From positions 943,197-1,007,196 of the forward strand of contig CBDCBX010000021.1 of NCBI GenBank assembly GCA_965214465.1: a stretch of 64,000 nucleotides of DNA. Reading direction: 5' to 3'. A program made the position numbers and the translations under genes. The DNA comes from Acidobacteriota bacterium (GTDB lineage Bacteria; Acidobacteriota; UBA6911; RPQK01; CBDAPI01). The stretch's first letter is position 1, and every line of letters begins with the position of its first letter. Shown piece by piece: positions 45,251 to 64,000 of this stretch. Under the pieces are notes generated by a model that was given only the letters and a program-made list of their open reading frames with translations, was not told the origin of the DNA and made no database searches.

Positions 45251-46234
45251 TCAAGTTGATCGAGAATGATCGAACAAGACTGTAGTCCCCTGCTCCTCGA
45301 AACGGAAGGGTAGCTGTTTGAGTTCGCTGAGGGCCTCGCGCACCCTACCCTGAAATTCGGGATTGCAGTAAAGAAGCAAGAAACCTCCTCCTCCGGCTCC
45401 GGTGATTTTCCCTCCCAGAGCTCCGGCGTCCAGCGCTCGAGAGTAGAACGAGTCGATTCCTCCGCTGCTGATGCCCGCAGCAAGCCCCTTCTTGAACTGC
45501 CAGCTCTGGTGCAGCAGAGACCCGAAACTGTCCAGTGCCCCTTTCTGAAGAGCCTCAATCCCCTCATCCACCAGGTCTCTCATTCTGGTCAGTACGCTGA
45601 AGTTCGTCTCTATCCGGCTCTCCTGCTCGCTTAACACTCTCTCCGCCCTGCGGGTCTGGTTGGTGTAAAAGAGCATCAGACGGTCTTCCAGCTGCTTCTG
45701 GTATTCAGCCTTCAGGTTGAGAGGGCAGCTTCGGATTTTGCCGTCGGGCTCAAACGAGAGCCGCTGGAATCCACCCAGGGACACAATGTACTGGTCCTGT
45801 ACTCCGATCGGCTTGGACAGAACATCGATCTCGATTTCACAGGCTTCTTCTGCCAGCTGCACCTGAGAACGCTGCCTTCCTGAGTAGCTGTACATGGCAT
45901 TGAGCAGACCCACAGTCACAGTGCTCGAAGACCCCAGCCCTGAGCCCTCAGAAGGGATATCCCCCATGGTTGAAATCTCGACTCCCTGCAGGATTTCTGT
46001 CCTGCGCAGGCATTCTCTGACAAGTTCATGCTCGAGTTCGTCCACTGACTCCACGAGTTCCGTGCGGGTGTACCCCACCCGTATGCGATCGTCGAATCTC
46101 TTCTTGATGATGACAAAAATGTACTTGTTGACGGCAGAGGAGAGAACGGCTCCGCCCTCCCTTCGATAGAAGTCCCGGAAGTCGGTGCCGTCCCCGAGAA
46201 AGCTGATGCGGAGAGGAGTCCGGGTGATCAGCAT
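45251..46234 (-). CDS. GHMP-family sugar kinase (D-glycero-D-manno-heptose-7-phosphate kinase-like)
   Basis: [13 protein letters not shown]-terminal motif. GHMP ATP-binding motif [11 protein letters not shown]. Confidence 0.75.
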
Positions 46235-46249
46235 CCAGGAAAAGCCTGT

Positions 46250-47830
46250 TCAGGCGGAATCTGCCGTAGAGGAGTAGTCATAGTAGTGGGACGACAGACC
46301 CGTCTCATGCCGGTTCAGGATGATTCCCAGAAAGTGGGCATCCGCTTTGGCCAGAGCCTCTTTGCTGCTTTTCGCCGATCTCCTTTGAGTGGAACCGGAA
46401 TCGACGATGAGAAGCACGTTCTTGCTCAGCGACGCTAAAAGTGGGGCATCGGCGAGAGCTAAGACGGGTGGACTGTCAATCAGAATGGTGTCCGCCAGTT
46501 CCTGCAACTGTCCGACTCGCTCCCTCATCAACTCTGACTCGAGAAGCTCCACCGGGTTCGGAGGGGCAGGCCCGGAGGGTAACAACGAAAGCCGATCTAT
46601 GGCGGTTGGAACAATCACGTCCGCGACCTTGAGGCTGGCATCGACAAGCAGGGTTGAAAGTCCCGGCGATGAGGCAAAACCCAGCGCTGTAGTGAGCCCG
46701 AACCTCCTCAAATCTGCATCGACCAGCAGCACATGTTTGCCGCTTCTGGCGATGGCCATGCCCAGATTGGACACGCTGACCGTCTTTCCTTCCGAAGGAC
46801 CCGCGCTGGTCAACAGGATCATGTTGGAACGCTCAGTAAAGCGGGTGAAGGCCAGATTGGCTCGGAGCAGATTGAACTCCTCTCCGGCTCGCCCGTCCGA
46901 GCCGGCCTCCAGGAATGATCCCCCAGCCTCTGAAGACTGTCTCGGGATGGTCGAGATTGTGGCCATCAAGGGGAGTTCCAGGTCTTCTTCGACTTCTTCC
47001 GCGCTGCGGTAACGGTCGTCGAGCAGGTCAAACAGGAAAACACCCAGCAATGTCAGGAGAGCACCGCCCAGTCCCGAAAGCGCAAGATTAAGCCAGAGTT
47101 TCGGAGAACTGGGACGGGTGGGTGTGAAAGCCGATTCGACCACGGACAGGTAGTTGGTCTGTTCCCGATCTCCCTGTAGTTTGAAGAGAGCCACATATTC
47201 CTGCCGCAACCCGCTCAACTTGACCTTTAGGGAAGCGATCCCATCGTCCAGCTTACGAATCTGCTGAGCTGTAGGAGCCTTGGTCCTTCCCTCTTCGAGG
47301 GCCCCCAGCTGATCCTGAAGGCTGCCGATCTGGGTTCGAAGCCGGGCCAGTTGATCATTCAGAAACAAGCTGTGATCTTCGTCGTCGATGCTCCCGCCAG
47401 TGGGGCTCTGACGGATCAACTGGGAGGCGATTTCGTCTGCAATCCTGCGAGCTTGCTCAGGATCGGAATCCGATACCGTGATGTCGAGCAACTGGGTGCG
47501 CGCTCGTGGTGCGGCGCTCACCCGGATTGCCAGATCTCGCCAACCCGTCGGCAATCCAAGTTCTGTCACTGTTGCCTGCAGGACCACCTCACGGGCGACC
47601 AGGTGCGCATAGGTCTCCGCCAGCCGCTCTCCTGCCATCATGTCCTGGGCTGTCGGTCGTTCCCTGTCCAGAAACTGACCGACCATCAGAGTGGTTGTGC
47701 TCTTGTAAATCGCCGTCATGCTTCTGGTGACCAGAAAACCTGTCGCCAGCGACAGAGCCATAGCTGCCAGAATTCCCCAGCGCCACCACCAGGCAGTTTT
47801 CAGCACCTGTCGAAACTCTAAGGTCTCCAC
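46250..47830 (-). CDS. Polysaccharide co-polymerase / bacterial tyrosine autokinase (Wzc/EpsB-like)
   Basis: N-terminal TM. Periplasmic coiled-coil (Wzz-like). Second TM. Walker A (LLTSAGPSEGKTVSVSNLG). C-terminal Tyr cluster (SHYYDYSST). Confidence 0.8.
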   Translation of the reverse strand: METLEFRQVLKTAWWWRWGILAAMALSLATGFLVTRSMTAIYKSTTTLMVGQFLDRERPTAQDMMAGERLAETYAHLVAREVVLQATVTELGLPTGWRDLAIRVSAAPRARTQLLDITVSDSDPEQARRIADEIASQLIRQSPTGGSIDDEDHSLFLNDQLARLRTQIGSLQDQLGALEEGRTKAPTAQQIRKLDDGIASLKVKLSGLRQEYVALFKLQGDREQTNYLSVVESAFTPTRPSSPKLWLNLALSGLGGALLTLLGVFLFDLLDDRYRSAEEVEEDLELPLMATISTIPRQSSEAGGSFLEAGSDGRAGEEFNLLRANLAFTRFTERSNMILLTSAGPSEGKTVSVSNLGMAIARSGKHVLLVDADLRRFGLTTALGFASSPGLSTLLVDASLKVADVIVPTAIDRLSLLPSGPAPPNPVELLESELMRERVGQLQELADTILIDSPPVLALADAPLLASLSKNVLLIVDSGSTQRRSAKSSKEALAKADAHFLGIILNRHETGLSSHYYDYSSTADSA

Positions 47831-62119: not shown

Positions 62120-63437
62120 TCGTCGTGGCCCCCGTAGAACGGACTTTAATGGAACTTAGATCAGGTACGAAAAAGCCGCTTTGCTGGTCTGCAACGGGGT
62201 TGAGTCCCTGCACCTCGAACAACTCGCTGACCGCCGTCGCCAGAGAGACTCCATCCAGGGCACCCCCCAGCTGGATCTCCAGATAGTAGTGCCCAGAGGA
62301 CAGCTGGAGCCGGGGCAGTTCGATCCGGATCTCACTCGTGCCCTCCGCAAATTGCAGTGAGTAGCCGTAGTCATCGGCCCGAAGCATGGCGGCTACGACG
62401 CCGTCCGAACGAACAAAACGGACCACCAGCCTGGATTCGGGAAGAGGCTCTTCCAACCACAGGCTGAGATCAATTTCGAACGGATCCCCGTGGTCGAAGC
62501 CCTGCCCCGCCCGTGGCCGGGTTGATCCAAATCGGATCTCTCTTATGAGTCCCGCCCCGGAAGACTTCCCAGAGAACGGTCCGGCCCCGAGTCCGTTATG
62601 GGTCTGCCAGGCCTGATAAGCGGCAATGCATGCCGCGCTGTCGCCATCGAACGCAATCTTCCCATCGGCTATGAACACGCTCCTGGGGCAAATGCTCTGC
62701 AACAGGTGAAGATTGTGAGACACAAGGACGATGGTTGTCCCTTTCCGGGTCAACTCCTGCACTCTTCTTGCGCAGCGCTGGCGAAAGGCGGAGTCGCCGA
62801 CAGCAAGCACCTCGTCTACCAGCAGAATTTCGGCTTCAACATGGGCGGCAACCGAGAATCCCAAACGGACATACATTCCTGAGGAGTATCTTTTCACCGG
62901 GGTATCCAGAAACTTCTCCAGGCCTGAAAACTCGACGATTCGATCGAAAACACCCTTAATTTCTCTGGTTCTGAGACCCAGGATGGCCGCCTTCAGGTAG
63001 ATGTTCTCGCGGCCAGTCAGCTCGGGATGAAACCCGGCTCCCAGTTCGAGAAGGGCAGCGACTCTTCCCTTTAGCAGCACCTGTCCTCGAGTGGGAGCCG
63101 CGACACCCGAAATCAACTTGAGAATAGTCGTTTTGCCGGATCCGTTAGGGCCTATGATTCCAAGTGCAGCACTCTGCTCGAGCTTCAGGCTGACGTCACG
63201 GAGGGCCCAGAAGGTCGAAGGAGACGGTCCTGCGGCAAGGCCGAGCCACCCTCGGGCCCTCCTGGTAATCTCAGCTCTCAAACTGGAACGCAGCTCGCCC
63301 AGCTGGTAGACCTTGGAGACATTTTTCAGTTCAATCACTGTCGCCAGCGCCTTAGAAAGAATCTTAAATAATATCTGCGAACTTCGGCTCGGAGCGCTTG
63401 AAGTACCAGTAACCGACCAGCACCAGGACCGTGACAA
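62094..63437 (-). CDS. wzt: ABC transporter ATP-binding protein for polysaccharide export (Wzt-like) with a C-terminal carbohydrate-binding domain
   Basis: Walker A GPNGSGKTT. ABC signature LSGGM...LLVDEVLAVGD. A ~150-aa C-terminal beta-rich domain. The true start may be the internal GTG near 63338. Confidence 0.8.
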   Translation of the reverse strand: MSRSWCWSVTGTSSAPSRSSQILFKILSKALATVIELKNVSKVYQLGELRSSLRAEITRRARGWLGLAAGPSPSTFWALRDVSLKLEQSAALGIIGPNGSGKTTILKLISGVAAPTRGQVLLKGRVAALLELGAGFHPELTGRENIYLKAAILGLRTREIKGVFDRIVEFSGLEKFLDTPVKRYSSGMYVRLGFSVAAHVEAEILLVDEVLAVGDSAFRQRCARRVQELTRKGTTIVLVSHNLHLLQSICPRSVFIADGKIAFDGDSAACIAAYQAWQTHNGLGAGPFSGKSSGAGLIREIRFGSTRPRAGQGFDHGDPFEIDLSLWLEEPLPESRLVVRFVRSDGVVAAMLRADDYGYSLQFAEGTSEIRIELPRLQLSSGHYYLEIQLGGALDGVSLATAVSELFEVQGLNPVADQQSGFFVPDLSSIKVRSTGATTSEETSRTR

Positions 63438-64000
63438 GGCAGAGGCTGATCAGAAGGGGAAGAGGCTGAGGAGCACTGCCTCTTAAACTGACTCTTCGAT
63501 AGGATTCGATCAAGAAAGCCATGGGGTTGAGCATATAAACCCACCGATACGAATCCGGCACCAGGCTGGCCGGGTAAATGACTGGAGAGGCAAACAGCCA
63601 GATCTGAAGCCCGAGGGGTACTACAAATCGTAGATCGCGAAAGCGGACGCAGAGTGCAGCGGCGGGAAACGCACATCCCAGGATCAGAAGAAACTGCACC
63701 AGCACGAGCACCGGCAACCAAAGCAGGGCGGCGCTCAAGGAAACGGAGTAGAAGAGAAAGAGCGGAGCCAGAATCAGACTGGCCACTGCCAGGTCGAAAA
63801 GAGCCGCAAAAGCGACTCCAATCGGCAACACTTCACGAGGAAAAGCGACTTTCTGCACCAGCGCCGTGTTCGCGGTCAAACTCGTGACTGCGCCGTTGAG
63901 TGCGTTGGACAAAAAGATCCAGGGAATGAGGCCTGTCAGCGAGAACACCGGGTAGGGAAGTCCGTCGCTGGGAACCCGGGCAAAAACGGAGAATACGACC
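63364..64000 (-). CDS. wzm: ABC-2 type polysaccharide export permease (Wzm-like), 5' end outside the window
   Basis: Multiple TM helices. ABC-2 family C-terminal region. Lies directly upstream of the ATPase. Confidence 0.7.
   Translation of the reverse strand, partial: VVFSVFARVPSDGLPYPVFSLTGLIPWIFLSNALNGAVTSLTANTALVQKVAFPREVLPIGVAFAALFDLAVASLILAPLFLFYSVSLSAALLWLPVLVLVQFLLILGCAFPAAALCVRFRDLRFVVPLGLQIWLFASPVIYPASLVPDSYRWVYMLNPMAFLIESYRRVSLRGSAPQPLPLLISLCLVTVLVLVGYWYFKRSEPKFADII

Follow-up and report, generated by a model that had tools for sequence, protein, structure and literature searches.

A candidate surface-glycan locus that places an ABC exporter beside Wzy_C proteins, and its apparently recent disruption in one genome

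How should one read a gene array that encodes an ABC exporter of the Wzm/Wzt type together with a Wzy_C-domain protein, a WbaP-type initiating transferase and a Wzc-like tyrosine kinase? The array in question lies on the minus strand of a 64,000-nt stretch of an assembly labelled Acidobacteriota (the window, to whose numbering all positions refer), at positions 45251-64000, and its genes are named here in minus-strand order (Table 1). A first-pass annotation had described it as a mixture of ABC-exporter and Wzy/Wzc pathways and as partly degraded. The genes are contiguous, closely packed or mostly overlapping, and all point in one direction over the ~19 kb that fall within the window. Our analysis suggests, with about an even chance of being right, that they form a single co-directional locus for a lipid-linked surface glycan whose export would depend on the ABC transporter and which would then be transferred outside the cytoplasm by an enzyme of the WaaL family.

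The window edge truncates the locus: the Wzm reading frame is still open at position 64000, the intact gene encoding 261 aa in L003 and L091. A full version is seen in a 99.9%-identical contig of 5.68 Mb (L091; also L092), where ~26.5 kb with 20 protein genes on a single strand run from mutL to tRNA-Glu. The seven glycosyltransferases of families GT2 (three) and GT4 (four) in the window are joined by an eighth, a GT2 enzyme, past the window end. No Wzx/MOP flippase is found among the 20 protein genes, nor an outer-membrane polysaccharide export (OPX) protein or an LCP ligase in the full locus, and the close packing of the window genes leaves no space for an additional flippase gene. Wzm/Wzt is the sole recognised exporter of the full locus, and the WbaP-type enzyme, PHPT, its single initiating transferase. 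Parts of both pathways are indeed present, Wzm/Wzt on the one side and Wzy_C, PHPT and the bacterial tyrosine kinase (BY-kinase) on the other. That two pathways are mixed is nevertheless not established, because Wzx is absent from the locus and because a Wzy_C domain can belong to a ligase, an O-oligosaccharyltransferase or a polymerase.

In the pathway that we favour, PHPT would prime the polyprenyl phosphate lipid carrier, and the cytoplasmic GT2 and GT4 enzymes would build the complete chain on it. The end of the chain would be recognised by the binding domain of Wzt, and the chain would be exported by Wzm/Wzt. A Wzy_C enzyme would then move it from the lipid to an acceptor, which could be lipid A-core in a cell with two membranes or a surface protein or wall polymer in a cell with one. 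The PMT_2 enzyme, which belongs to the GT-C class, would add sugars to the glycan outside the membrane, and the BY-kinase would have a regulatory or chain-length role. What points to this route is that the Wzy_C protein of the window, Wzy_C1, retains the functional Arg and His of WaaL and PglL, that the locus holds no flippase, and that Wzm/Wzt is the only exporter.

How well do the individual components bear this out? All gene families named in the first-pass annotation pass hidden-Markov-model (Pfam, NCBIfam) or fold tests, and every gene that it listed for a minus-strand array ending at tRNA-Glu is present where it had been placed. Wzm matches Pfam ABC2_membrane with 38.5 bits for the window fragment and 58 bits for the full 261 aa (cut-off 26.9), and in phmmer searches Wzt matches Aquifex aeolicus Wzt in the PDB at 1e-60 and TagH/TarH at 1e-47. 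The C-terminal binding domain of Wzt is less readily seen: its direct match to Pfam Wzt_C is below threshold (17.5 bits against 30.4; E 0.004), and the domain alone finds no PDB match by sequence search. Most Wzt homologs with 40-50% identity across most of their length carry PF14524, and an AlphaFold model (pLDDT 84.7) shows residues 263-401 as an all-beta domain. Foldseek aligns 380-395 columns of this model with the full-length A. aeolicus WzmWzt (E 1e-36), versus ~245 columns at 5e-26 for structures of the nucleotide-binding domain only. The assignment of a C-terminal binding domain thus holds, through PF14524 in the homologs and a model match that extends beyond the nucleotide-binding domain.

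Wzy_C1 matches Pfam Wzy_C with 37.8 bits (cut-off 31.7). R242, R320 and H363 are invariant in its family, together with a stretch H-N-x9-G-x-x-G. A profile comparison with WaaL of E. coli K-12 is weak (E 0.1), yet it pairs R320 with R288 and H363 with H338, two of the three residues important for WaaL function, conserved also in PglL (PMC3643930). The AlphaFold model, built with 37 homologs (pLDDT 88.5), has a lone strong match in the PDB, WaaL 7TPG at E 6e-6, followed by RodA and FtsW, and this fold search returned no structure described as a Wzy polymerase. The concern that the protein might be an unrelated transporter is answered by this match to WaaL. Sequence searches of the PDB with the Wzy_C profile and with the PMT_2 protein gave nothing useful. 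The domain is common to ligases, O-oligosaccharyltransferases and polymerases (PMC3643930, PMC12502699), and most beta-linking Wzy polymerases have been reported with it (PMC12502699). Since Wzy_C occurs in both, the domain alone cannot separate a ligase from a polymerase. We read Wzy_C1 as a putative WaaL-family enzyme that would move the exported chain to its acceptor, with ligase activity predicted from the modelled fold and the conserved residues. It has no BLAST-level similarity to the second Wzy_C protein of the full locus.

Among the remaining components, the intact PHPT allele (497 aa, from L003) scores 364.6 against TIGR03025 (cut-off 295.6), and the Wzc-like kinase 144.2 against TIGR01007 (cut-off 108). 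The kinase carries Walker A (AGPSEGKT), A' (LLVDADLRR) and B (ILIDSPP) motifs and a C-terminal YYDY. At 526 aa it is short, nearer to its homologs in Chloroflexota loci (525-643 aa) than to the forms in Acidobacteriota metagenome-assembled genomes (MAGs; 726-756 aa). A PEP-CTERM/XrtA exopolysaccharide system was considered and rejected, the NCBIfam cut-offs being missed by the kinase (TIGR03018, 135.5 of 230.7), the initiating transferase (TIGR03013, 158.4 of 393.4) and the stp-type glycosyltransferase match (TIGR03087, 209.3 of 316.7). By Pfam, the window part of the locus holds no methyltransferase or kinase-terminator domain that could mark a chain terminator; a B12-radical-SAM enzyme and an acetyltransferase occur upstream of wzm, only within the fuller locus. 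GT2a and GT2b are full-length paralogs with 37% identity and share a C-terminal extension of ~190 aa that ends in W-x-x-N-R-G-F-x-S-I; in one related locus (L030) a methyltransferase-like open reading frame (ORF) beside Wzt, unrelated to GT2a and GT2b, has a similar tail, WLKNRGVLSI.

Is the hybrid layout a peculiarity of this genome? A scan based on the Wzy_C alignment, with one genome per species, returned 452 Wzy_C relatives, and the results on related loci refer to the best 80 of these 452. Nearly all of the 80 come from Chloroflexota MAGs (Anaerolineales, Ardenticatenaceae, Caldilineaceae, Promineifilaceae, Thermoflexales); the labels Acidobacteriota, Binatia, Deltaproteobacteria and Margulisiibacteriota account for a few. 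The top Wzy_C identity among them is 43%, and homologs of the locus proteins point mostly to Chloroflexota, at 40-58% identity. The loci of two Acidobacteriota MAGs (L040, L049) are equally close to the window locus and share its gene order. A search with the class I fumarase gave the host no finer placement, its named hits at 75-78% identity coming from Tectimicrobiota, Nitrospirota and Alphaproteobacteria. Gene content was counted by tblastn with the locus proteins, in loci with enough flank only, and the GT4 counts may include cross-matches between paralogs. A core emerges in which GT4b is matched in 67 of 71 loci (those with at least 1.5 kb of upstream flank; it stands directly upstream of Wzy_C in the ORF-level maps), GT2c in 67 of 74, GT4c in 60 of 64, GT4d in 58 of 60 and PMT_2 in 46 of 53. 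The other components are matched less often: Wzc in 25 of 48 loci, GHMP in 16 of 48, PHPT in 13 of 48 and Wzt in 7 of 43. The Wzt count, taken within a flank of 10 kb, is a lower bound: Wzt is present in eight loci, in four of them right where that flank ends, and the Wzt of Ca. Leptofilum lies 11.6 kb away.

Where Wzm/Wzt is found, its placement follows two patterns. In compact loci (L016, L021, L077) Wzm-Wzt lies 0.7-1.6 kb from the Wzy_C-PMT_2 pair and there is no Wzc; in larger ones, Ca. Leptofilum included, Wzt stands 6.7-11.6 kb upstream of the Wzy_C gene, and in L008, L026, L030, L041 and L060 it is co-oriented with it. The Ca. Leptofilum genes, 11.6 kb upstream of the Wzy_C gene, are in one record (L034 with L087). 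An Ardenticatenaceae Wzt, whose locus contains no Wzy_C gene, is directly flanked by the same genes as the Leptofilum Wzt. The occurrence of ABC-type and Wzy/Wzc-type machinery in one locus had been called atypical. This does not really hold: the combination recurs in several species and has published precedents (PMC2943079, PMC9574508), and on the evidence of these gene maps the hybrid layout is a recurring architecture, not a one-off. As a separate observation, radical-SAM homologs with 61-74% identity adjoin Wzy_C/PMT_2 in L040, L049 and L077.

The same comparison supplies some of what speaks against the ABC-dependent pathway set out above. A co-polymerase joined to a BY-kinase is a hallmark of Wzy-dependent, not of ABC-dependent, systems. 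The core GT4b-Wzy_C-GT2c-GT4c-GT4d-PMT_2 mostly occurs without an ABC transporter within 10 kb, with the caveat that the Wzt count is a minimum. One of the two unrelated Wzy_C proteins could be a polymerase, and a flippase could be encoded elsewhere in the genome. No chain-terminating enzyme that would prepare a chain for recognition by Wzt was identified in the locus. Three features do not fall neatly into the ABC route, namely the BY-kinase, the modular conservation and the presence of a second Wzy_C protein, and they keep alive a model in which the locus makes two chains.

Such a dual-chain system would resemble the rhamnose cell-wall polysaccharides of lactococci and enterococci. Wzm/Wzt, with GT2a, GT2b and GT4a, would make and export the first chain. 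The second chain would be primed by PHPT and built by GT4b, GT2c, GT4c and GT4d, after which a Wzy_C polymerase controlled by Wzc would polymerise it on the outside; linking it to the first chain would fall to the GT-C enzyme PMT_2 or to the second Wzy_C protein. This would account for the modularity, the Wzy_C core being present in ~90% of related loci while Wzm/Wzt, GT2a, GT2b and GT4a vary, as well as for two unrelated Wzy_C proteins and for the co-polymerase/BY-kinase and GT-C enzyme, and there is a published precedent (PMC9574508). However, a flippase of Wzx or GtrA type is missing from the complete locus, and reading the representatives of ORF clusters revealed none in the related loci either; the locus has just one initiating transferase, and no pair of polyprenyl-P-sugar synthases of the GacI/GacJ type was recognised. 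Moreover, the compact loci keep Wzt directly beside Wzy_C-PMT_2 without any Wzc. We consider two chains the less likely arrangement, with a substantial minority share of our belief.

A further possibility is that the array is a classical Wzx/Wzy/Wzc exopolysaccharide locus whose flippase lies elsewhere, with Wzm/Wzt as a mere neighbour that serves another polymer, for example a teichoic-acid-like one. PHPT, Wzy_C and a BY-kinase are the usual trio of the Wzy pathway, and the 10 kb around the core lack an ABC transporter in most relatives. Against this, the array is tightly packed and runs in one direction, with Wzm/Wzt touching or overlapping the genes beside it, and the arrangement recurs in at least 8 other species, in addition to Ca. 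Leptofilum at 11.6 kb. Nor was a flippase seen in any of the 80 loci: no flippase-like family was recognised among their recurrent unassigned ORFs, judged by reading cluster representatives rather than by HMM. We regard this explanation as improbable.

Comparison with known systems places the ABC-dependent pathway in a more familiar setting. The ABC O-antigen route (E. coli O9a; A. aeolicus WzmWzt, 7K2T/8DKU; WaaL, 7TPG) has in common with the array the Wzm/Wzt pair, its C-terminal beta domain included, a large set of cytoplasmic glycosyltransferases, a protein of WaaL fold that keeps the conserved Arg and His, and the lack of Wzx. It differs in that the initiator here is a WbaP-type PHPT instead of WecA, that no terminator enzyme is identified here, and that the present locus adds a co-polymerase/BY-kinase, a GT-C enzyme and a second Wzy_C protein. 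An initiator of the WbaP type is not exclusive to the Wzx/Wzy pathway (PMC2943079): in the S-layer glycan (slg) clusters a WbaP homolog is unexpectedly paired with Wzm/Wzt and a Wzy_C transferase (PMC2943079). The slg clusters of Geobacillus stearothermophilus NRS 2004/3a and Paenibacillus alvei (WsaP/WsfP, Wzm/Wzt, WsaB/WsfB) share just this set with our locus. They are likewise tightly packed, with wzm/wzt upstream of the glycosyltransferases, and they too have a neighbouring TPR protein, WsaA there and the 608-aa TPR/BNR protein here; by analogy, the Wzy_C transferase here may act on a protein. Unlike them, the present locus has no rml or other nucleotide-sugar genes save one GHMP kinase, and carries in addition the BY-kinase, the GT-C enzyme, the B12-radical-SAM enzyme and the second Wzy_C protein. 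No S-layer gene or candidate target glycoprotein gene was found in the flanks of the locus.

Two other kinds of system share some of its parts. Rhamnose cell-wall polysaccharide loci join ABC export with Wzy-like and GT-C steps (PMC9574508). Those of lactococci and streptococci, like the EPA loci of enterococci, bring together, as our locus may, a chain exported by an ABC transporter, a polymerase of Wzy type and its Wzz-like partner, and extracytoplasmic transferases of the GT-C fold, but they include a flippase of Wzx or GtrA type, an initiator of GacI/GacJ type and LCP ligases, none of which is present here. With the BY-kinase loci of the Wzx/Wzy pathway (E. coli group 1 Wzc; Gram-positive CpsC/CpsD) the array has in common a PHPT initiator, a Wzy_C-domain protein, and a fused co-polymerase and tyrosine autokinase whose sequence has Walker A/A'/B motifs and ends in a Tyr-rich stretch. 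It differs from them in having neither Wzx nor an OPX/Wza gene, in the ABC exporter embedded in the array, and in the shortness of its kinase (526 aa, with a small extracytoplasmic loop). None of the components falls outside known families, and for the architecture there are both precedents and relatives. The combination of an ABC exporter that has a binding domain with two Wzy_C proteins, a GT-C enzyme and a BY-kinase, without Wzx, is matched by none of the characterised systems that we found.

What would the glycan be attached to? Chloroflexota have been reported to lack genes for lipopolysaccharide (LPS) and for the BAM machinery, and their envelope layers are chemically unidentified (PMC13319060). 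If the host belongs to Chloroflexota, the acceptor would therefore not be lipid A-core. A protein acceptor in a single-membrane Chloroflexota host, our first assumption, was given up as a firm reading, and lipid A-core, a surface protein and a wall polymer are all treated as candidates. More generally, one may ask whether the core GT4-Wzy_C-GT2-GT4-GT4-PMT_2, often accompanied by the BY-kinase, the GHMP kinase, PHPT and upstream Wzm/Wzt, represents an uncharacterised envelope-glycan pathway that runs through the filamentous Chloroflexota and some neighbouring phyla. Such a pathway would need no Wzx: a tyrosine kinase would govern ABC export together with the WaaL-like transferase and the GT-C enzyme to which that export is coupled. 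We offer this tentatively and think it somewhat doubtful as a whole. Were it true, the pathway could build unidentified outer layers or the sheath of Chloroflexota that are supposed to have a single membrane. In published work on Chloroflexi/Chloroflexota with O-antigen ligase or Wzm/Wzt we found no description of this type of cluster. The conserved Wzy_C/GT-C core, which recurs in hundreds of uncultivated genomes, mostly of Chloroflexota, is a candidate entry point to those unidentified envelope layers (PMC13319060), while the locus by itself is a routine surface-glycan locus with a strain-level knock-out.

We now turn to that knock-out. Exact-protein look-ups retrieved four environmental assemblies (L001-L004) that are 99.9% identical to the window, and the lesions were mapped base by base against them. 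GT4c (428 aa) and PHPT (497 aa) are intact in all four. In the window GT4c is split at codon 271, as had been noted before, by an insertion sequence (IS) at 52468-54104 with inverted repeat CCCGGATTATGCA, which is absent from L001-L004 and flanked by a 4-bp target-site duplication, CTAA, at 52464-52467 and 54105-54108. Three copies of this one IS1380-type element occur in the 64 kb, all with inverted repeats and 4-bp duplications; in the ISfinder classes a DDE_Tnp_1_4 transposase, inverted repeats beginning with CC and a 4-bp target duplication go with the IS1380 family. The two sister copies, at 10072-11736 and 41352-43004, have intact 445-aa transposases (DDE_Tnp_1_4 in Pfam, 486 bits) and CTAA/TTAG duplications of their own, while the copy in GT4c differs from them by deletions of 1, 7, 4 and 1 bp and has a dead transposase.

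PHPT carries two lesions, neither of them present in L001-L004. The two frameshifts reported for the initiating transferase are real as lesions, but only one is a simple frameshift, an extra G at 48838; the other is an insert of 160 bp (48499-48658) that comes from the interior of a transposase gene of the Mutator/IS256 family (Transposase_mut match). This insertion has no target duplication and no IS ends, and no source copy was found in the window, the fetched loci or a plasmid collection; repair filler, a template switch or an assembly chimera are candidates for its origin. It is in frame with the catalytic domain of PHPT, so that a 262-codon ORF fuses the fragment to the complete domain.

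Elsewhere the window hardly differs from its relatives. Over ~18 kb of unique sequence there is a single indel between the two, and most single-nucleotide polymorphisms (SNPs) are private to L003. Of 18 differences between the window and L003, 14 are nonsynonymous, mostly specific to L003, and the numbers are too small for a reading in terms of relaxed selection. At every SNP site covered by L004 the window has the L004 base. Since both genes are intact in L001-L004 and the window agrees with L004 at the covered SNPs, the lesions are, as judged from these alignments, very recent and strain-specific, on a background near-identical to the intact allele. To call the locus decaying or changing in specificity, as had been proposed, is thus an overstatement. 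Because PHPT is interrupted twice and one GT4 gene is split by an IS, the glycan pathway is probably off in this genome. Against this stands the survival of the C-terminal catalytic part of PHPT in the 262-codon ORF: C-terminal domains of such initiating transferases can suffice for activity (PMC2943079), and the pathway may not be fully dead. As a separate matter, L004, an assembly of 3x coverage, has GT4b split into 260 and 104 aa by a 1-bp indel (L004:1835-2945, window 57304-58413), which is either a separate inactivation event in this locus or an error due to the low coverage.

Might the disruptions themselves be artefacts of sequencing or assembly, with the locus intact in the source organism? 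The extra G is a difference of one base, the IS copy in GT4c has four small deletions that are unseen in its two sisters, the 160-bp insertion comes without a target duplication and without a source copy in the window, and a low-coverage relative carries its own frameshift in GT4b. On the other hand, the inverted repeats of the IS are exact, its 4-bp duplication is clean and of the CTAA/TTAG kind seen at both other copies, and an assembly with one indel over ~18 kb of unique sequence is not indel-prone. An artefact of this kind seems to us quite improbable. Taken as real, the lesions make the locus a clean natural example of a very recent loss of a surface polymer, with three independent lesions in two genes and intact alleles in four assemblies, the kind of change expected under pressure from phages or predators.

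Table 1. Genes and features of the locus, in minus-strand order from the window end to the tRNA boundary, followed by the genes that lie past the window end.
Feature	Position	Strand	Basis and remarks
Wzm, ABC-2 permease	63364..64000	-	Pfam ABC2_membrane; 3' 212 codons, first ~50 codons outside window
Wzt, ABC ATPase with C-terminal carbohydrate-binding-type beta domain, 414 aa	62094..63338	-	Pfam ABC_tran
GT2a, family-2 glycosyltransferase	60920..62071	-	Pfam Glycos_transf_2 5.7e-35; ~190-aa C-terminal helical extension
GT2b, family-2 glycosyltransferase, GT2a paralog	59726..60916	-	Pfam Glycos_transf_2 7.2e-36
GT4a glycosyltransferase, 391 aa by relatives' gene calls (L003)	58482..59657	-	Glycos_transf_1 9.5e-37, Glyco_transf_4
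GT4b glycosyltransferase, 369 aa	57304..58413	-	Glyco_trans_1_4, Glyco_transf_4
Wzy_C1, polytopic WaaL-fold membrane protein, 480 aa, ligase or polymerase	55865..57307	-	Pfam Wzy_C
GT2c glycosyltransferase, 304 aa	54926..55840	-	Glycos_transf_2 7e-20
GT4c, N-terminal 270 codons (of 428 aa)	54105..54916	-	Weak Glyco_transf_4 match; collinear with L001-L004
IS1380-type IS inside GT4c, dead transposase (197 + 243 aa)	52468..54104	+	Pfam DDE_Tnp_1_4
GT4c, C-terminal 159 codons	51989..52467	-	Glyco_trans_1_4 9.5e-15; collinear with intact gene
GT4d glycosyltransferase, 373 aa	50854..51975	-	Pfam GT4 domains; TIGR03087-like, under its cut-off
PMT_2 family GT-C membrane glycosyltransferase, 445 aa	49512..50849	-	Pfam PMT_2 33.8 bits, cut-off 26.1
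PHPT, WbaP-type initiating transferase, disrupted (intact allele 497 aa)	47861..49515	-	Bac_transf + CoA_binding_3
Wzc-like fused chain-length determinant/tyrosine autokinase, 526 aa	46250..47830	-	Wzz + AAA_31
GHMP-family sugar kinase, 327 aa	45251..46234	-	GHMP_kinases_N/C; best NCBIfam HddA, far under cut-off
tRNA-Glu(CTC), downstream locus boundary	45078..45153	-	ARAGORN; Rfam tRNA 57.1 bits
Five extra genes upstream of wzm, next to mutL (next five rows)	L091:2105-9975
Second Wzy_C protein, 441 aa	upstream of wzm, outside window
Hexapeptide acyltransferase (acetyltransferase)	upstream of wzm, outside window
Additional GT2, 412 aa	upstream of wzm, outside window
B12-binding radical SAM enzyme, 557 aa	upstream of wzm		Nearest NCBIfam HpnJ, under its cut-off
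TPR/BNR protein, 608 aa	upstream of wzm, outside window

The surroundings of the locus differ between species. A related species (L093), whose fumarase is 90% identical, keeps the same order of the genes for a fatty-acid desaturase, fumarase, a TPP-enzyme and an OmpA-family protein (in the window the last is encoded at 24948-25979), and at the corresponding place has neither the glycan locus, nor the tRNA side, nor the RHS genes described below. Because L093 preserves the flank order without the glycan locus, the latter, as far as gene order tells, sits in a variable region. Past tRNA-Glu, the flank at 43180-44765 encodes a TadE/G-like protein (43180-44499, plus strand), beyond which lies the IS copy at 41352-43004, and a small ORF (44538-44765, minus strand) with a weak resemblance to Flp pilin, under the Pfam cut-off.

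Farther away, positions 28032-36307 encode two very large RHS-repeat proteins side by side (1539 and 1209 aa), accompanied by a DUF3500 protein and a short-chain dehydrogenase. Since this block is missing from the syntenic region of L093, it looks like an inserted toxin island. At 3228-9368 and 12938-14281 there is a cluster of B12-binding radical SAM genes, one of them fused to a SAM methyltransferase (812 aa), which also includes a separate methyltransferase, a small ORF resembling GT2 and two ORFs that match nothing in Pfam, and which may be a natural-product or lipid-modification cluster.

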